Notes under the pieces: model-generated | Databases searched by the model: none | What the model was told of the DNA's origin: nothing | Seen by the model: only the letters and a program-made list of their open reading frames with translations | Program-made: the position numbers and the translations under genes | Shown: piece after piece, positions 10,001 to 55,606 of the stretch | Layout of the letters: the number at the start of each line of letters is the position of its first letter | Position numbering within the stretch: position 1 is the first letter of the stretch | From: Alphaproteobacteria bacterium | GTDB lineage: Bacteria; Pseudomonadota; Alphaproteobacteria; JAJTHO01; CANGYM01 | DNA length: 64,000 bases | Assembly: GCA_044372405.1 (NCBI GenBank) | Contig: JBILRW010000001.1 | Location: forward strand, 19,260-83,259 | Reading direction: 5' to 3'

Positions 10001-10204
10001 ATGGGGGCGGGGCCGGGGAGGGTGGCCAGGGCGGCCTCGGCAGGGTGCTCGATTCTCTGGCTGCCGTCCTACGCCCCTGATCTGAATAAAATTGAAAACT
10101 CTTGGGCCACCATCAAACATTACGCCAGAAAATTCCTCGCACGATTCGGCGCAACCCTAAAATGGGCCATCCTCAGAGCCATCGCAACCTTCCAAAAAAA
10201 CTAA
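10001..10204 (+). pseudogene. IS630/Tc1-mariner family transposase, C-terminal remnant
   Basis: ...ILWLPSYAPDLNKIENSWATIKHYARKF... matches the IS630 C-terminal block (LPPYSPDLNPIE). Only about 67 codons remain and there is no N-terminal part. Confidence 0.65.
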
Positions 10205-10337
10205 CCTTAGTGCGGTAGGCAATATGCTGCGTGTCTTGGTAGAAAAGATTCATTTGCGATAAGGCGGTTTATGGCTGATGTCTGTGAAAAAAAGGTGGCA
10301 GCCTTTGGGGGGATTTGTTAAGGTCGCCTTCCTTTGT

Positions 10338-10421
10338 GCGGTCGTGGCGGAATGGTAGACGCGCAGCGTTGAGGTCGCTGTGGGGAGACCCGTGGAAGTT
10401 CGACTCTTCTCGACCGCACCA
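10338..10421 (+). tRNA. tRNA-Leu (anticodon GAG)
   Basis: GCGGTCGTGGCGGAATGGTAGACGC...CAGCGTTGAGGTCGCTG..., a long variable arm, the T-loop GTTCGACTC and a 3' CCA. Confidence 0.85.
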
Positions 10422-28225: not shown

Positions 28226-28448
28226 CGGGTTCAAAGGGTATACACTTAAGAAGGCTGGCGTGTTCGAGGCCCATCACGTTCCTCGGTCCATATGTATAAG
28301 AATGGGAGCTGTCCCTGTCTTAACCGTGGTTAAGGTATTACGGCGCCCCCCTGGTCATCGGCACCAGGCAACACGATGGCCACGGCACGCTGGCTCTAAA
28401 GCGTTTAAATGTATTGTTTTTTTTATGGAAATCTTATTCTGTAACCCT

Positions 28449-28532
28449 CGTGCGAGCGCAGCGAAGCAATCTAGAAATACCGTCACTGCAAAGACTGGAT
28501 TGCCACGCCTCCTACGGAGGCTCGCAATGACG
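28449..28532. repeat. MITE-like palindromic repeat, copy 2 (inverted relative to copy 1)
   Basis: Its reverse complement aligns almost base-for-base with 715-802. Confidence 0.8.
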
Positions 28533-38811: not shown

Positions 38812-39759
38812 TTAGTTACTGAGGGCACGAATCATCGCAGAAAAAAGCATCTTGTCAAGAACCAGAGCCGTGAATAAAGCAAACAAATAAAGCAAGGAGT
38901 ACCCAAACAAACGACGGGCGGCTTTGTTTTGCTCCTCAAGATTGGTGGTGATTAAAGGATGGGCCAAGGATAAAAAACGAAGGCCGAGAAGTAAGGCGAT
39001 GGCGCCGTATCCCCAGGAAACGTATCCCAGTAAGGCAGGCATCAACGAAATACCAGTTAGCAGAATAGTATAAACAATAATGTGGGTCACTGTAGAGGGT
39101 CTTCCCTTGACCACAGGCAGCATAGGAACGCCAACACGGGCATAATCATCGGCCCGATAAAGAGAAAGCGCCCAAAAATGGGGCGGTGTCCAGAAAAAGA
39201 CAATTAAAAATAAAGACCAGGGCAATAGGCTATCCACGTTTCCCATGAGTGCCGCCCACAAAATCACGGGGGGAAGGGCCCCTGCCGCGCCGCCAATCAC
39301 AATGTTTTGGCTGGTGGAGCGTTTTAAAACAACAGTGTAAAGACCGGCATAAAAAACAATCGAAAAGGCCAACCACAGGGCCCCGTACCATCCCACAGAC
39401 AGCCCCATCAGGCCCACAGAAAAAAACGCCAGACTGACTGAAAAAAAGAGGGCATCATCAAGGTGAACTTTGCCCGAGGGAATGGGGCGCTCCGCCGTTC
39501 GTTGCATTTGCGCATCAATATCGCGGTCATACCACATATTAAAAGCTCCCGCCGCGCCGCTGCCCAAGGCAATGCAAAAAAGGGCCATAAGACAAGAAAA
39601 GAGATCAACCTCACTTAAAAACGGTACTGTGCAAACCGCTGTAAAAACAACAAGCTGAATGACCCTGGGCTTTAACAGCTGGCCGTAAGGAGAAAGCGTG
39701 GCCAGGGAAAGGCGGAGCTCGGTAAAAAATGGATTTTGCGTGGTTTTCAGGGTAATCAT
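38812..39759 (-). CDS. ctaB: Protoheme IX farnesyltransferase (heme O synthase)
   Basis: UbiA-family motifs (NMWYDRDID). The start is taken at the internal ATG MITLKTT. Confidence 0.8.
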   Translation of the reverse strand: MITLKTTQNPFFTELRLSLATLSPYGQLLKPRVIQLVVFTAVCTVPFLSEVDLFSCLMALFCIALGSGAAGAFNMWYDRDIDAQMQRTAERPIPSGKVHLDDALFFSVSLAFFSVGLMGLSVGWYGALWLAFSIVFYAGLYTVVLKRSTSQNIVIGGAAGALPPVILWAALMGNVDSLLPWSLFLIVFFWTPPHFWALSLYRADDYARVGVPMLPVVKGRPSTVTHIIVYTILLTGISLMPALLGYVSWGYGAIALLLGLRFLSLAHPLITTNLEEQNKAARRLFGYSLLYLFALFTALVLDKMLFSAMIRALSN

Positions 39760-40148
39760 ACGGGCAAAATTCCCAAAAGCGATGCGACGCCTAAAACAAT
39801 AGCCGCAGTGATGCATACAATAGAGACCATAAACGGTACCATTCTTCGGGAGGGCTGAGAAGAGGTGTACCCTAAAACATAAAAGAGACGCGCGGCAAAC
39901 CAAAACCATCCCAAAGCAGCTGCGGCGAAGCCCTGGCCCTGTCCAGACAAAATCCATAAAAGCGGCAAAAAAACAACGGAGGATTCGATGGTGTTTTGCT
40001 GGGCACGAAAAATAGCCTCAAACCGGGGGTGGCCACGCGTTTCAGGAGGAATAACACCGAATTTATGGCGGGCGCGCCCCACCCAAAAAGCCAAAGCGAT
40101 GATAAACGCGCAGGTGAGAAGCGTGATGAGTGTGGGATGAAAGGGCAT
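39756..40148 (-). CDS. MAPEG-family membrane protein
   Basis: 130 aa with four TM helices and MAPEG-like spacing of conserved residues (RARHKFG ... FVLGY). It overlaps ctaB by 4 nt. Confidence 0.5.
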   Translation of the reverse strand: MPFHPTLITLLTCAFIIALAFWVGRARHKFGVIPPETRGHPRFEAIFRAQQNTIESSVVFLPLLWILSGQGQGFAAAALGWFWFAARLFYVLGYTSSQPSRRMVPFMVSIVCITAAIVLGVASLLGILPV

Positions 40149-40157
40149 AAGAAACCT

Positions 40158-41762
<1,605 letters not shown>

Positions 41763-42569
41763 TTAAAGGGGTTTTGAGGAGAGTTTTTCAGTCACTTTGC
41801 CGCCTTTTTCTTTGATCCAGGCGTCAAAGGCAGCGGGTGAAACGGCCTTAATAGCAATGGGCATAAAGGCGTGACCGACACCGCAGATTTCTGAGCACTG
41901 GCCGTAGTACATGCCCTCTTTTTCAATCAACGTCCAGGTTTCATTCAGACGGCCGGGAACGGTATCAGTTTTCACGGCCAAAGACGGCATGGCCCAGCTG
42001 TGAATGACATCCGCAGATGTTAAAATGAACTTTATTTTGGTACCCACGGGCAAAACCAAGGGGTTATCCACATCCAAAAGGCGTTTTTGCCCGGGTTTTA
42101 AGTCTTTTTCTTCAATCATGTAAGAATCAAACGTAAACCCCCCATGATCAGGGTAACCGTATTGCCAGTACCATTGATGACCTGTGACTTTAACGGTAAA
42201 GGCCGCGTCAGGGGCAACATCCGTAAAATAAAGGAGCCGCATAGACGGGACGATAATCGCCACCAAAATCAGGACAGGAATGCCAGTCCAAATCACTTCC
42301 AGTAAGGTATTATGGGATGTTTTTGACGGAACGGGGTTTTTAGAGGCCCTAAAACGAAACGTGACATAAACCAACAAAAGCAAAACAAAAATCGCAATGG
42401 CAAAAATAAGATAGGTCATGGCCCCATGAAACTCATGAACACGATGGGCAACAGGCGATAAAGGGGGCTGAAAAGACAGGCCCCAGGGTTGAGGTTCAGC
42501 AGAAAAAGAAGGGGTTGGCCCAAAACCTATTAAGCTCAAGATAAAAACAAGAAGACAACGCATGGACAA
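41763..42569 (-). CDS. ctaC: Cytochrome c oxidase subunit II
   Basis: CuA site HSWAMPSL...CSEICGVGH. Confidence 0.9.
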   Translation of the reverse strand: MSMRCLLVFILSLIGFGPTPSFSAEPQPWGLSFQPPLSPVAHRVHEFHGAMTYLIFAIAIFVLLLLVYVTFRFRASKNPVPSKTSHNTLLEVIWTGIPVLILVAIIVPSMRLLYFTDVAPDAAFTVKVTGHQWYWQYGYPDHGGFTFDSYMIEEKDLKPGQKRLLDVDNPLVLPVGTKIKFILTSADVIHSWAMPSLAVKTDTVPGRLNETWTLIEKEGMYYGQCSEICGVGHAFMPIAIKAVSPAAFDAWIKEKGGKVTEKLSSKPL

Positions 42570-50843: not shown

Positions 50844-50935
50844 CGGAGAGGTGGCCGAGTGGTCGAAGGCGCACGCCTGGAAAGTGTGTATATGCCAAAA
50901 GCGTATCAAGGGTTCGAATCCCTTTCTCTCCGCCA
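50844..50935 (+). tRNA. tRNA-Ser (anticodon GGA)
   Basis: Near-identical in layout to E. coli tRNA-Ser(GGA): ...GCACGCCTGGAAAGTGTGTAT..., a long variable arm and a 3' CCA. Confidence 0.85.
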
Positions 50936-51141
50936 GGTTTTTTGGTGGGTGTAAAAACCGTAACTCCCCAGCCCCCTATGCCGGCATAAAATACGGATGT
51001 TAAATGACTTTGTTTTTTCTAAGCGCCATTTTCGTGTTTGGGAGGTCAAAAACAGCGTTTTTGTCTCTAATTTGGTAAAATGCTAAAAATAAAACCATTG
51101 AAAATCAATAGCTTCAAGGTTTTTTCAGGAGGGCTGGGTAG

Positions 51142-52110
51142 TTATTTTCTGCGGGCTTTAATGATGCCTTTGGTTTGCGGGACAGGCTTTTCTTGTGTCG
51201 ATTTACGCCGAGTTTTTTTGGGCTTTGCTGTGGCTTTTTCAGGTTTTTCGGGTGTTGCTGCTGCTGTGCTGTTTTTCGGCGGACGTCCGGGCTTTTTGGG
51301 GGCGGGGCTGAGGAGTGTTTTAAGGGATGGTTTGGTTTTTTTGACGCTTTTTGTGATGGTTTTCTTTTTGGGTGTGGGCGCGGCAACAACCGTATCGTCA
51401 ATGTCTATACCAAACAGCGCCGCCATATCATCGTCGGCCATAATACGGTCGGTATCCGGTTTGGCCGTACCCGTCATCGGGATGTTTTTGCCTGCGGCGG
51501 AGATTAATTCATTTTCATTCACGGCGCGTAGGGTAAAGAGCAGCTCTGGCTGTTTATCCAACCGTGCCCCAACACCATACAGCGCCGCTGCCACGTGTTT
51601 GCACATATCCGCCCAATCGGGGCAACTGCACGACAGGCTGATCTCTTTGGGGGAAGGAAACAGACCGTCACCCTTGCGGCACACCCGTTCCATGACGTTT
51701 TGCGATAGTTTTCCTTGCAGCAATTCCACCAATGATCCGACCGAACCTGCCGCGTCTTTACAGATTTCTTCCCAATCTTCTTTTTTTAATTCCTTGATTT
51801 TTATTGTTATTTTGTATATTTCCGATCCGATAACCAGCGCTGTAACCTCGCCCTTACTCACCTGTAAATCGGCCACCGATCCGTTACGGACATAGGTGCG
51901 CCCACGGGGCAGGCGGCTTTCATAATCACTGTAATGTTCAAGATTTTCACACCACGATTTGCCCCAGAAACTTTTGGCAATGGTGCGACCCTCAATCACG
52001 ACGGGGGTGATTTTTTGTCCCTGCTGGCGCAGCTTTTCCAGTTTTTTCTGCCCCTCGGCGCGGCGCTGTGCCACGGATACGTATGGCCCCCATTGTCTTC
52101 CCCAACTCAT
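51142..52110 (-). CDS. SWIM zinc-finger protein with a Lys/Pro/Ala-rich, histone H1-like C-terminal tail
   Basis: The SWIM motif CSCPDWADMCKH. The C-terminal tail is about 80 aa of AKP/KK repeats. It lies immediately downstream of the SNF2 helicase, separated by a 3-nt gap. Confidence 0.75.
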   Translation of the reverse strand: MSWGRQWGPYVSVAQRRAEGQKKLEKLRQQGQKITPVVIEGRTIAKSFWGKSWCENLEHYSDYESRLPRGRTYVRNGSVADLQVSKGEVTALVIGSEIYKITIKIKELKKEDWEEICKDAAGSVGSLVELLQGKLSQNVMERVCRKGDGLFPSPKEISLSCSCPDWADMCKHVAAALYGVGARLDKQPELLFTLRAVNENELISAAGKNIPMTGTAKPDTDRIMADDDMAALFGIDIDDTVVAAPTPKKKTITKSVKKTKPSLKTLLSPAPKKPGRPPKNSTAAATPEKPEKATAKPKKTRRKSTQEKPVPQTKGIIKARRK

Positions 52111-52113
52111 CGC

Positions 52114-54876
52114 TTAAGCCTCCTTCAGGGCAGCGCTTAGATCCAGCGCCACCAGGTTTAACAGTTCAGTATTGCTCATCTCGGTCAGGTTGATTTCACC
52201 GCCGCCGCCGCCTTCTAAAAACGCACCCGCCAATTGTTTTTTCGATTCAATCATCTCATCTATTTTATCTTCAATTGTGCCTTTGCAAACAAATTTATGT
52301 ACCAGAACATTTCTTTTTTGGCCAATACGAAAGGCACGATCGGTGGCCTGGTTTTCCACTGCCGGATTCCACCAGCGGTCAAAGTGGATCACGTGGGATG
52401 CGGCGGTGAGGTTTAAGCCCGCGCCGCCGGCTTTGATGGAAAGCACAAAAAACGGTACGGTTTCATCTTCCTGAAATTGACGCACCAGGTCTTTGCGCTT
52501 GGCAACGGCGGTTTCGCCGTGCAGCACCAATCCTGGGCGGCCAAAAATACCACTCAGGAACGCGGCCAGCGGTGCCGTGGTTTCCTTAAACTGGGTGAAC
52601 ACCAGTACCTTTTCCTGTTTTTCGGCGATGGTTTCGGCAATATCCCGCAGACGCGCCAGCTTGCCGCTGTCATTCTCCCGCCACAAGCCATCGCCCAACC
52701 ACTGCGACGGATGATTGCAAATCTGCTTGAAACGCATCAGGAATGACAGCACGAGGCCTTTGCGGGCAATGCCGTCGTGGGCTTTTTCCAGCTGCTCGAC
52801 CATATCGTCCACAGCCTGCTGGTACAGCGCCGCCTGCGCCCGGCTGAGGGAACAGAACGCTTTCACCTCTGTTTTATCGGGTAGATCGGCAATGATACTT
52901 TTATCGGTTTTCAGGCGGCGCAGAATATAGGGACGCACCAGATTGCGTAACGGGGCGTACGAGGGTTGCGGCAGGTTATCGAGGTGCTTAACAAAGCCAT
53001 TAAAATCCTTGGCACCGCCCAGCAGCCCTGGGTTAGCAAAATCAAAGATCGACCACAAATCGCTGAGGCGGTTTTCAATGGGCGTACCGGTCAGCGCAAT
53101 ACGGGATTGAGCTTTCAGGGCTTTCACGGCCTTGGTTTGCTTGGTGCCGGGGTTTTTAATGGTCTGGGCCTCATCCAGCACCGCCAGCCTCCAGGACATT
53201 TCCATCAGCCACGGCAGACGCAGCAGCGTGCCATAACTGGTGATCACCAGATCGATTTCGCGCAACAGCTGTTCTGGTTTTGTTTTTAAATCCTCTGCCG
53301 ATAAGGCGGAAGGGTGGGCAATTAGGGTGCGCAGCGACGGCGCAAATTTTGCCGCCTCTGCTTCCCAGTTTCCAAGGAGCGAGGCCGGTGCAACGAGAAT
53401 GCTGGGCTTATGCTCTTTGGCTTTTTGCTGTTTTAACACCAGCAGCAGGGATAAGACCTGTATCGTTTTCCCTAAACCCATATCATCGGCCAGACACGCC
53501 CCAAGGCCCAGTTGCGAGAGTAAATGCAGCCACGCTACCCCCGCCTGCTGATACGGACGCAAGGTGGCGTTTAGGGCTTTGCCGGGATTCACCTGTCCCC
53601 GTGCATCAGGACTGCGCAGCTGCGCCAGCGTTTCATCCAGCCATTTTCCGGCGTTTACCTCGGCCCAGGATACCGTGTCCGCCGTGTCCGCCTGACCGGT
53701 GATGCTGGCACCGGATAACAGGCGCATGGCTTCGGCAAACGATAGTCCTTCTTCAGCAGCGGCGTTTTGCACCGCCTGAAATTTATCCAGTGTGGCTTGC
53801 AGGGCGGCGCGATCGACCTCTATCCACTTGCCGCGCACCAGGGCCAAACCATCCGACTGCGAGAGAATTTCCTTGATTTCCCTGCGGGTGAGTGTTTCCC
53901 CCTCCAGCGTCACCTCCATATCAAAATCCAAAAGCGCGTCCATGCCCACGGTTGAGGGGGATTTACTGCCCACAGTGGCTTTTACTTTCGGGCGCGGTGG
54001 TTTGTTCATGCGCCAATTGGCGGGCATCCTCACAATCACCCCGGCCTCTTCCAACGAAGCAGCGTCTTTCAAAAATTGAAGGGCATCTTGGGGTTTCCAG
54101 CGCAGCGGATGGAAAATCTCGCTGCTGCTTACAATGGCTTTCAGCCACGCACACGCTTCCGCGGCCCGCTGTACTGGCAATAGCAAAGTTAGCAGACTGG
54201 CTTTGTTTTCAAGGCCAGCGTATTCTTTGAGTGCCTGCCCTAATGGCACATGCCGCGCCTGCCCGCCGGCGGATAGTCCTGTGGTATAGGTGGCCATAAA
54301 GGCAAAGGGCCAGTTTTCATCTTTGCGGTTTTCCGCCAAATTAAAATGCACCCGGCCAACGGTATGCCAGGCAGGATTGCGCTGTTTCAAAAAATCGGCC
54401 ACCGATAATCCGGCAGCAGTGCGTTCAACCAGCAGCGCCGCGTTCATATCGGCCCATAACGTCGCCAACACATCGGGGGTCAGGTATTCACCGCCCTTCA
54501 TGGGCGGGGCATCGTCGATGAACTGGCTGAGTACCCCCGGCGCCGGCGTTGATACCAAGGTAATTTCGCTTTCGGGCAGGGCCCGCAGGGCGTCGATATA
54601 GCGCGTTCCCAGTTCCCGCCACCAAGCAAACAGCGGCGGCAGGATCGTTGCACCCTCGGTGGTGGCAAGGTGCAGCAATCCATGACCGCACCCTTTGGTA
54701 AATGCCGCCTCCAGCCGCTCAGCAACAGCTGCTTCAAATGGCGCGGCATTTTCCGCTCGCTCTAGCAATACATGCCCGTGCGGGGTTACAAGGGGTACGA
54801 AGGCTATAGGTTTCAAACGCGCAACCCTTGAAGATACGTCCGTAATGAATAAAACGTGTTTCTCGTTTTTGTACAT
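52114..54876 (-). CDS. SNF2-family helicase/ATPase with a large N-terminal accessory domain
   Basis: DEXH box LADDMGLGKTIQ... and helicase-C motifs. The first 92 codons of the raw ORF (up to 55152) run through MITE copy 3 and are rejected. The start is taken at ATG 54876. Confidence 0.75.
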   Translation of the reverse strand: MYKNEKHVLFITDVSSRVARLKPIAFVPLVTPHGHVLLERAENAAPFEAAVAERLEAAFTKGCGHGLLHLATTEGATILPPLFAWWRELGTRYIDALRALPESEITLVSTPAPGVLSQFIDDAPPMKGGEYLTPDVLATLWADMNAALLVERTAAGLSVADFLKQRNPAWHTVGRVHFNLAENRKDENWPFAFMATYTTGLSAGGQARHVPLGQALKEYAGLENKASLLTLLLPVQRAAEACAWLKAIVSSSEIFHPLRWKPQDALQFLKDAASLEEAGVIVRMPANWRMNKPPRPKVKATVGSKSPSTVGMDALLDFDMEVTLEGETLTRREIKEILSQSDGLALVRGKWIEVDRAALQATLDKFQAVQNAAAEEGLSFAEAMRLLSGASITGQADTADTVSWAEVNAGKWLDETLAQLRSPDARGQVNPGKALNATLRPYQQAGVAWLHLLSQLGLGACLADDMGLGKTIQVLSLLLVLKQQKAKEHKPSILVAPASLLGNWEAEAAKFAPSLRTLIAHPSALSAEDLKTKPEQLLREIDLVITSYGTLLRLPWLMEMSWRLAVLDEAQTIKNPGTKQTKAVKALKAQSRIALTGTPIENRLSDLWSIFDFANPGLLGGAKDFNGFVKHLDNLPQPSYAPLRNLVRPYILRRLKTDKSIIADLPDKTEVKAFCSLSRAQAALYQQAVDDMVEQLEKAHDGIARKGLVLSFLMRFKQICNHPSQWLGDGLWRENDSGKLARLRDIAETIAEKQEKVLVFTQFKETTAPLAAFLSGIFGRPGLVLHGETAVAKRKDLVRQFQEDETVPFFVLSIKAGGAGLNLTAASHVIHFDRWWNPAVENQATDRAFRIGQKRNVLVHKFVCKGTIEDKIDEMIESKKQLAGAFLEGGGGGEINLTEMSNTELLNLVALDLSAALKEA

Positions 54877-54983
54877 CCCAAGATTATCAGCCTGGGAAAG
54901 TTTCCCGAAAAACAAAAACATAAGATAACGCATCGGGTTGTTCAATACAAAAAATAAAAAATCCTTTAAAGGCAAAAAGTTAA

Positions 54984-55068
54984 CAACTGCGAGCCTCCGT
55001 AGGCGGCGTAGCAATCCAGTTTTCCCCCTGGCAGCCTTTCTGGATTGTGTCGCTGCGCTCGCATGACG
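54984..55068. repeat. MITE-like palindromic repeat, copy 3
   Basis: ...ctgcgagcctccgtaggcggcgtagcaatccag...gctgcgctcgcatgacg, about 85% identical to copy 1. Confidence 0.75.
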
Positions 55069-55219
55069 AAGGTTCTGGGTAAGTCTTGTTTTGTTGTAAT
55101 GCCTCCACCCTCGGGGACAAGGGCTGGGGAGAGGGGTCTGGCCCGTACCCATATTCTGAAAGATCGAAAAAAATCCCGCCGTACCTTTTGGGCGGGCGGG
55201 ATTTTAAGAGAAAGTGAGC

Positions 55220-55438
55220 CTAACACTCTCTTTCTCTTGATGAGGCTCTTTCTATCTCAATCAAAAAGGCCTCGACGTCGTCCAGGAGACTTTCGTTCCC
55301 GCGGCCACGTTGTTCGCCTCCTTGGTCTAAATCCGAAAATTTAATGGAAAATTCTCGAATTTTTCTTGCCGGAAGACTGGCAAGCTTGGCCTTGCAGACT
55401 CCGAGCATGATTTCCCTTACTTCATAATAATCAATCAT
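55220..55438 (-). CDS. Hypothetical small protein (72 aa)
   Basis: Open frame only; there is no family resemblance. Confidence 0.2.
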   Translation of the reverse strand: MIDYYEVREIMLGVCKAKLASLPARKIREFSIKFSDLDQGGEQRGRGNESLLDDVEAFLIEIERASSREREC

Positions 55439-55606
55439 TGAATTTAAAGGCCTTGACGGCTTTATGACAGAATGCCCCCATTATGCGCTGCGCTGCGCTG
55501 CGCTGCTTTGCAAGCATTTTGTTCACAATTGCCAAAAAATTTTTGGGTTGCCAAAGGAGTGGGGTGCGCTATACCTGAACGTCTGTTGTGGAGACGATGA
55601 AGGCCC

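Follow-up and report, generated by a model that had tools for sequence, protein, structure and literature searches.

The window analysed here, a stretch of 64,000 nucleotides (nt) of contig JBILRW010000001.1 from an alphaproteobacterium, carries on its minus strand two adjacent genes which encode an SNF2-family ATPase and a SWIM zinc-finger protein. The SNF2 gene occupies positions 52114–54876 (minus strand) and codes for 920 amino acids (aa) from the ATG at 54876; its open frame runs on to 55152, resulting in an open reading frame (ORF) of 1012 aa. The SWIM gene (51142–52110, minus strand, 322 aa), delimited by the ORF list, Pfam and the alignment of homologues, lies downstream with a spacing of 3 nt between the SNF2 stop and its own ATG. 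This layout, an SNF2 ATPase of about 920 aa with a SWIM gene 3 nt further on, had been proposed in a first-pass annotation of the window, and both minus-strand ORFs were confirmed.

The SNF2 ATPase and the SWIM protein

Three Pfam families were detected in the SNF2 protein: DUF3670 (PF12419, 112 bits), SNF2-rel_dom (PF00176, 212.7 bits) and Helicase_C (PF00271, 70.2 bits). The DUF3670 segment was located at 53719–54114 (minus strand; residues 347–478 of the 1012-aa ORF, E 2.3e-32), and the ATPase core, composed of SNF2-rel_dom and Helicase_C, at 52321–53553 (minus strand), as determined by Pfam, the motifs in the translation and the matches in the PDB. The ATPase motifs are intact in the translation, motif I being GLGKT, motif II DEAQ and motif VI QATDRAFRIGQ. 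The sequence LADDMGLGKT, which had been labelled a DEXH box, is the Walker A motif (motif I), and the place of motif II is taken by DEAQ. Of the Pfam families named in advance for the two proteins, PF04434, PF00176 and PF12419 were matched and PF08455 was not. The best PDB match to residues 435–912 of the SNF2 protein was SsoRad54 (1z63) with an E value of 1e-124 and 420.6 bits, followed by a second-best match to the ATPase core with 4e-72 and 247 bits. The N-terminal region of approximately 420 residues (53557–54816, minus strand) is a conserved accessory region. Its description as a large uncharacterised domain held: the predicted model is good, with a predicted local distance difference test (pLDDT) score of 80.9, and the structure comparison returned no solved counterpart. 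No nuclease or other effector domain was recognisable in either protein by Pfam or by structure comparison.

The true start of the SNF2 protein is probably the TTG codon at 54816, which would give a product of 900 aa. The nearest relatives of the pair were found on three contigs (L001, L004 and L005) of Holosporales or alphaproteobacterial metagenome-assembled genomes (MAGs), with 80–82% identity in the SWIM and 91–93% in the SNF2 protein. The 900-aa product is likely because the SNF2 genes of all three relatives encode 900 aa and start with MKPIAF (3/3), because the protein identity to them begins precisely at codon TTG 54816 (93% over 900 aa to L004) and because residues 1–22 of the 920-aa version are predicted to be disordered. 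In the same three contigs a tetR gene lies upstream of the SNF2 gene, and its stop overlaps the SNF2 start. In the window, a remnant of about 28 nt of the tetR 3' end was found at 54817–54844 (minus strand), the homology to the three contigs ending at 54844; beyond this remnant, a tblastn search of the window with TetR gave nothing significant. Judging from this comparison, the lineage of the window has likely lost the TetR regulator.

The SWIM domain (PF04434) was matched at residues 159–178 of the SWIM protein with 22.5 bits, the cutoff being 19.6, and the motif CSCPDWADMCKH is present. The CxCx6CxH zinc-binding motif (C161, C163, C170 and H172; 51595–51630, minus strand) was assigned from the alignment, in which these four residues are invariant in 95 homologues. 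The first approximately 235 residues are 55–68% identical across phyla and contain about 70 invariant positions among the 95 sequences, including the arginine- and aromatic-rich block FWGKSWCxNLExYSDYxxRLPRGRxYVRNG. In the structure comparison of the predicted model, the fold matched ZSWIM8 and Shu2, and no solved structure related by sequence was found even at E values up to 1. Between the folded core and the tail lies the motif D-x-x-A-L-F-G (residues 228–234; 51409–51429, minus strand), with A231 and F233 invariant and D228, L232 and G234 conserved in at least 90% of the sequences. The model has an isolated helix at residues 227–233, in a region of low confidence, and the motif may be a short docking peptide.

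The C-terminal tail of the SWIM protein (residues 235–322, 88 aa; 51142–51408, minus strand) is polybasic and predicted to be disordered, with pLDDT values below 50 at residues 234–319. Its composition is K 24%, P 15%, T 14% and A 10%, the isoelectric point (pI) is 11.1 and the net charge is +21. The tail had been described as built of AKP/KK repeats; the basic composition is as described, and no significant tandem repeat was found. Similarly, its likeness to histone H1 is partial. The disordered, strongly positive tail rich in Lys, Pro, Ala and Thr resembles the C-terminal domain of linker histone H1 and bacterial H1-like proteins, of which Chlamydia Hc1 is an example. However, no linker-histone domain of Pfam was matched in the SWIM protein, the winged-helix globular domain and the tail repeats of H1 are absent, and the 24% of lysine is below that of H1 tails, where lysine accounts for roughly 40%. 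The resemblance to H1 is compositional only.

The basic tail is also not a peculiarity of the window protein. Tails with a pI above 10 were found in 92 of 93 close homologues (median length 75 aa) and in 118 of 139 diverse representatives (median 130 aa), and the basic character is kept across the family while the sequence of the tail is unconserved. The basic disordered tail is thus a feature of the whole family and not special to this genome. The tail of the window protein contains a degenerate AT-hook core, KKPGRPPK, and the tails of the Holosporales relatives the canonical KKRGRPPK. The AT-hook was considered as a family-wide feature and rejected, as GRP occurs in 11 of the 139 diverse tails and 11.5 are expected from shuffling; clear AT-hook arrays are restricted to a few members. 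Among these representatives, P0246 has a tail made up of 14 or more tandem GKVGRPAKAT units, which form an array of AT-hook-like GRP cores, and the tails of P0307 and P0295 hold repeated RGRPR/RGRPP motifs. A 271-aa ORF on the plus strand (51080–51895) runs antisense to the SWIM gene; in all likelihood it arises from the Lys/Pro-rich codons of the tail and is no gene.

Gene pairing and mobility of the cassette

An exhaustive HMMER search with residues 1–240 of the SWIM protein as the query, conducted against cluster representatives at 50% identity, resulted in at least 6,114 representatives at E ≤1e-3 and 1,121 at E ≤1e-30. Among the best 150 matches listed, the SWIM core sits at or near the N-terminus and is followed by the tail. 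The gene neighbourhood was determined for 80 loci with a SWIM relative (one genome per species) and the contigs L001, L004 and L005, altogether 83 loci. In every one of the 83 loci, an SNF2 homologue directly precedes the SWIM gene in the same orientation, and these homologues are full-length, being collinear with the window protein from about residue 12–30 to 920. When every ORF of the 83 loci was clustered, two widespread families only, SNF2 and SWIM, were obtained, and no other ORF family occurred in more than five loci, i.e. there is no conserved third gene. The SNF2 stop and the SWIM start overlap by 4 nt in Bradyrhizobium, and the two proteins are fused in a 1168-aa SWIM-DUF3670-SNF2-Helicase_C protein of the Fulvitalea axinellae plasmid pFA2 and in a SWIM-DUF3670-SNF2 ORF of a Wolbachia WO prophage region. 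The strict adjacency, the translational coupling and the fusions speak for both proteins acting as one machine. The earlier statement that the pairing is widespread and functionally undefined is consistent with the size of the family, with the adjacency in every locus and with the literature searched, where no functional paper was found.

Some genomes carry more than one copy of the pair. Two separate SNF2-SWIM loci (L037 and L038) originate from one MAG, MFD05377.bin.2.157, and the Bradyrhizobium plasmid AP014686.1 matches the SWIM protein in two places. In another group of loci, a RecD2-like helicase (OB_YrrC, HHH_RecD2, AAA_30, SH3_13) and a small hypothetical ORF are situated just upstream of the pair, as on the Bradyrhizobium plasmid p26S5a (L084, 3605–5806) and in about 5 genomic loci, e.g. 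L029, L039, L040, L041 and L071. These two genes may form a lineage-specific extended module of the Bradyrhizobium-type copies.

The pair is a self-contained, horizontally mobile accessory cassette. The nucleotide homology to L001, L004 and L005 (85.5%) extends from 54844 to 51146 only, which corresponds to the two genes and the approximately 28 nt of the tetR 3' end. The genes around the cassette in the window are dnaX, coxC, DUF983, SURF1, tRNA-Ser, ispH, thrB, rnhA and ampG, and none of the flanking genes was found in any of the 83 loci. In the nearest relatives, the neighbours of the pair are fragments of the insertion sequences (IS) IS1, IS630 and IS66, a Fic protein and an AlkB fragment. 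The closest housekeeping relative obtained in a metagenome search with the IspH of the window was contig L087, whose IspH, ThrB, RnhA and SURF1 are 79%, 71%, 84% and 57% identical, respectively. L087 has the order SURF1, tRNA-Ser, ispH, thrB, rnhA but no SNF2 or SWIM gene; between its tRNA-Ser and ispH there is one 221-aa ORF only, which we take for a hydrolase. The pair was beside ispH in none of the other 79 IspH loci, and contig L086, which belongs to the same species as the window, has the identical arrangement.

The distribution of the relatives points in the same direction. After the two Holosporales-type matches, the next SWIM relatives (59–68% identity) belong to Bryobacterales (Acidobacteriota), Hyphomicrobiales, Gemmataceae, Myxococcales and Holophaga, and by these protein identities the taxonomic spread is at odds with the organismal phylogeny. 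In PLSDB, 116 plasmid records (about 0.16% of the records) have a homologue, and 77 of the 116 are conjugative (56) or mobilizable (21). Plasmid homologues with 50–63% identity were detected in Bradyrhizobium, Mesorhizobium, Azospirillum, Burkholderia and Cupriavidus necator H16 (pHG1). On Bradyrhizobium p26S5a the pair is located among transposases and a recombinase, and on pHG1 ParDE toxin-antitoxin genes and a restriction endonuclease are found near it. Searched against sequenced phages, the SWIM core gave one distant match and the N-terminal region of the SNF2 protein gave none. The first-pass annotation had named universal core-genome synteny with no link to variable regions as the contrary case. 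The determined pattern was different: the site is empty in L087, the homology ends at the gene borders and homologues are carried by conjugative plasmids.

The mobility of the pair is not accompanied by a compositional anomaly, as its GC content and its GC content at third codon positions are within the range of the other genes of the window. An integrative island at the tRNA-Ser was also considered and rejected, there being no integrase ORF in 50936–55600 and no direct repeat of the tRNA 3' end; the slot beside the tRNA-Ser is nonetheless variable between relatives. A 16-nt A/T-rich direct repeat of low complexity, matching in 14 of 16 positions, surrounds the cassette (51079–51094 and 54944–54959) and is probably due to chance. 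For the neighbour scan, the genes one and two places away from the pair were taken from about 55 loci, 210 proteins in all; the first neighbours were compared with Pfam and PADLOC and the second ones with Pfam only. Nothing was enriched and no defence family occurred more than 2 times. The commonest neighbours were the RecD2-like helicase (about 5 loci, all of the Bradyrhizobium type), response regulators (3), serine recombinases (3) and IS66 transposases (2).

Known relatives and possible function

The SWIM domain was reportedly described by Makarova et al. in 2002, and its association with bacterial and archaeal SNF2 ATPases is said to have been known since then. The cassette shares with the SWIM-associated SWI2/SNF2 ATPases of bacteria and archaea the SNF2 ATPase, the upstream DUF3670 and a paired or fused CxCxnCxH SWIM protein, all the compared features being present. 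There is no essential difference between this family and the window copy, which is distinguished by the lost tetR, the tRNA-Ser alongside and the Holosporales-type genome. The ATPase core is closer to SsoRad54 (1z63, 420.6 bits) than to RapA (47 bits), as is typical of the SSO1653 type. Judged by domain content and scores, the cassette belongs to the known SWIM-associated SSO1653-type SNF2 modules. The association was restated by Iyer et al. in 2017, who also noted the presence of SWIM-associated SNF2 ATPases in mobile systems (PMC5512222).

Among the curated families of NCBIfam, the best match was NF058637, the SCO1167/SCO6262 family helicase of Streptomyces, with 587.3 bits over the profile positions 269–931 of 932. 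Since the score is below the cutoff of 1200 bits and the first approximately 270 profile positions are unmatched, the window protein would represent a sister group rather than a member. Distant SWIM homologues are carried by Streptomyces plasmids. The defence-related SNF2 proteins were more distant: ZorD of Zorya type I (NF041790) was matched with 299.7 bits (cutoff 1500), DrmD of DISARM with 89.6 bits (cutoff 950) and 59.8 bits (the DrmD cutoffs ranging from 610 to 950) and DpdE of Dpd with 44.7 bits (cutoff 500). RapA/HepA (NF003426) reached 47.3 bits against a cutoff of 576, in the C-terminal helicase lobe only. ZorD, DrmD, DpdE and BrxH share the SNF2 ATPase core with the window protein, and ZorD also shares a part of the region just upstream. 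In contrast, the nuclease domain of ZorD is absent from the window protein, and no partner genes of ZorABC, DrmABC/methyltransferase, Dpd or Brx were found in the window. The eukaryotic SWIM proteins Shu2/SWS1 and ZSWIM8 have at most 16% sequence identity to the SWIM protein of the window, have other partners (Rad51 paralogues and a cullin ligase, respectively) and have no polybasic tail of this kind.

The reading favoured here, to which we give about even chances, is that the pair forms a two-subunit translocase on double-stranded DNA, carried as mobile accessory DNA, in which the SWIM subunit anchors the motor on the DNA and which has a role in recombination, repair or the handling of new or mobile DNA. 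The SNF2 protein would be the motor, of the SsoRad54/SSO1653 type, and the SWIM protein its obligate partner or adaptor. The SWIM zinc-finger core probably docks on the conserved N-terminal/DUF3670 region of the motor, and the disordered polybasic tail would tether the complex non-specifically to duplex DNA. By pulling against this anchor, the motor would twist or loop the DNA and strip bound proteins from it, similarly to the eukaryotic SNF2 remodellers and Rad54. With neither a nuclease nor another effector domain in the pair, the output would be mechanical. As accessory DNA the cassette moves horizontally, being located on conjugative plasmids, in IS-rich regions and, in the window, in the variable slot by the tRNA-Ser. 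Rather than a housekeeping function, its most likely role would be recombination, repair or dealing with DNA that is mobile or has been newly acquired. The domain content, the intact motifs, the strict pairing of the genes, the fusions, the disorder and charge of the tail and the mobility of the cassette are shown by the data; the physical complex, for which gene fusion and translational coupling are indirect support, the anchoring by the tail, the displacement of proteins and the biological role are inferred.

The motor part of this reading is modelled on SsoRad54 (SSO1653) of Sulfolobus solfataricus, whose ATPase core is the closest one solved. The ATPase activity of SsoRad54 depends on dsDNA, and the protein alters the topology of the duplex and stimulates strand exchange by RadA (PMC2677860). 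Its catalytic core binds duplex DNA and translocates on it without unwinding, and the SNF2 remodellers twist or loop DNA and displace proteins by the principle of a motor combined with an anchor (PMC1616948). The presence of Shu2, a partner of Rad51 paralogues, among the fold relatives of the SWIM protein was counted in favour of the translocase. Several points weigh on the other side. The similarity to SsoRad54 spans the ATPase half only, the N-terminal 420 residues of the window protein having no solved relative, and for the interaction of SsoRad54 with RadA no bacterial equivalent involving RecA has been demonstrated. RNA or acidic proteins would be equally plausible ligands of the basic disordered tail. 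The very high conservation, about 60–70% across phyla, fits a conserved cellular target without naming one, and the biological role proposed is generic. In the literature searched, no functional study of or experiment on any member of the SWIM-SNF2 family was found; another bacterial SNF2 protein, YwqA of B. subtilis, has been described as poorly characterised (PMC7385302).

A role in defence against phages or plasmids, which the first-pass annotation had listed as a candidate, is rather unlikely. The SNF2 motor would scan foreign DNA like ZorD, DrmD, DpdE or BrxH, with the SWIM protein as a sensor or tether and host nucleases doing the killing. The ATPase core does score against the PADLOC models of ZorD and DpdE, whereas the corresponding NCBIfam models stayed far under their cutoffs and their partner genes are missing from the window. 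The weak similarity between the SWIM protein and PDC-S62, a defence candidate (E 4.6e-6), the toxin-antitoxin and restriction genes nearby on pHG1 and the accessory, patchy and mobile nature of the cassette would suit defence. However, phages almost never carry the pair, and the identity of 60–70% across phyla seems unusually high for a defence gene. The defence role is little supported because effector domains are absent from the pair and its neighbourhood is not rich in defence genes. It is likewise unlikely, if with different arguments, that the cassette serves the mobile element by which it is carried, helping an incoming plasmid or island to establish, e.g. through the removal of silencing nucleoid proteins or restriction complexes or the promotion of recombination and integration. 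At most genomic loci the neighbours are ordinary metabolic or regulatory genes, with none of a mobile element within two genes, no transposase or integrase is located beside the cassette in the window, and a homologue is present in only a minute fraction of the plasmid records and in essentially no phage. These observations stand against the conjugative or mobilizable nature of most of the plasmids concerned, the Bradyrhizobium copies amid transposases and recombinases and next to the RecD2-like helicase, the IS1, IS630 and IS66 fragments beside the Holosporales copies, the fusion in the WO prophage region and the account of SWIM-associated SNF2 ATPases in mobile systems (PMC5512222).

We consider it quite improbable that the pair is a true prokaryotic remodeller, in which the SWIM protein would be an anchor of the linker-histone kind, the motor would strip nucleoid proteins, RecA filaments or stalled complexes, and the D-x-x-A-L-F-G peptide would recruit a conserved host machine, e.g. 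the sliding clamp. Motifs that bind the replication sliding clamp end in L-F. If this proposal were true, the family would be the bacterial counterpart, and possibly the ancestor, of the eukaryotic Rad54/Shu2-type recombination accessory factors, spread by plasmids. The chances of a factor of the RapA/HepA kind, acting on RNA polymerase and recycling stalled or post-termination complexes, are slim. RapA is the best-studied bacterial SNF2 protein, HepA and YwqA of B. subtilis have been discussed as translocases interacting with RNA polymerase (PMC7385302), and the high conservation would suit a conserved target such as this polymerase. Nevertheless, the RapA model was matched in the helicase lobe only, and no RapA-like domain was matched in the SNF2 N-terminal region. 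A RapA-like role is unlikely because the defining features of RapA are missing and because the closest relative does without this accessory pair, which would not be expected of a core transcription factor. A secreted nucleomodulin which remodels host chromatin in an intracellular, Holosporales-type bacterium, its H1-like AT-hook tail targeting the host DNA, is very unlikely because free-living soil bacteria commonly carry the cassette together with the tail. With 55–68% identity and a similar basic tail, it is common in soil Bradyrhizobium, Bryobacterales and Cupriavidus. The origin of the nearest relatives from Holosporales MAGs, with canonical AT-hooks in their tails, and the host-directed SNF2 proteins suggested, as a speculation, for other intracellular bacteria (PMC3319617) would speak for such an effector, but no secretion signal or linkage to a secretion system was seen in the window and the GRP motif is unenriched across the family.

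The translocase reading concerns one of the largest bacterial SNF2 families. The SWIM-SNF2 module is the prokaryotic group closest to the eukaryotic chromatin remodellers. To the previous description, the present analysis adds the limits of the cassette as a strict two-gene unit, the evidence of mobility from the empty site and the plasmids, the fusion proteins, and the polybasic disordered tail and the D-x-x-A-L-F-G peptide as family-wide features; the window instance is otherwise ordinary for the family. A further addition is the identification of close plasmid homologues in tractable hosts, namely Cupriavidus necator H16, with the pHG1 genes E6A55_RS33090 and RS33085, and Bradyrhizobium.

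Flanking sequences and other features of the window

The tRNA-Ser and the miniature inverted-repeat transposable element (MITE) that had been reported to flank the operon were both located. The tRNA-Ser(GGA) occupies 50845–50935 (plus strand), is separated from the SWIM stop by 206 nt and borders the variable slot which holds the cassette. The tRNA-Ser after SURF1 has the anticodon GGA in the window and GCT in L087 (643–735), the two genes aligning well only in the T-arm region, and the sequence past the tRNA-Ser is unrelated between the window and L087. The tRNA aside, the promoter, terminator and Rfam scans of the locus gave nothing informative.

Upstream of the operon, a 79-nt palindromic dispersed repeat was found at 54988–55066 (no strand assigned). 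It has three copies in the window, the further ones being situated at 715–796 and 28448–28532, with 81–90% identity. The core of this element of about 80 nt, TGCGAGC...AATCCAG...CTGGATT...GCTCGCA, is of the repetitive extragenic palindromic (REP) or MITE type in appearance, and its pattern was matched 2 times in the window while 0.03 matches are expected. MITE-like repeat is a fair name for it.

The interval from the palindromic repeat to ispH contains a 72-aa ORF (55220–55438, minus strand), which matches no Pfam family and is kept in the same-species contig L086. After this ORF, near 55160–55200, a terminator-like hairpin with a T-run was seen by eye, which was not listed by the terminator scan. 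Elsewhere in the window, a stretch of about 3 kb (39001–42000) has a strong AT skew of +0.25 to +0.36, which greatly exceeds that of the remaining sequence. A fragment at 10025–10207, near a tRNA-Leu (10338–10421), shares 79% identity across 61 aa with an ORF of the Holosporales contig L004 that encodes a putative transposase, presumably IS630-like; the fragment is probably the relic of an IS next to this tRNA. Positions 55484–55506, in the spacer upstream of ispH, hold 4.6 perfect units of the pentanucleotide TGCGC.

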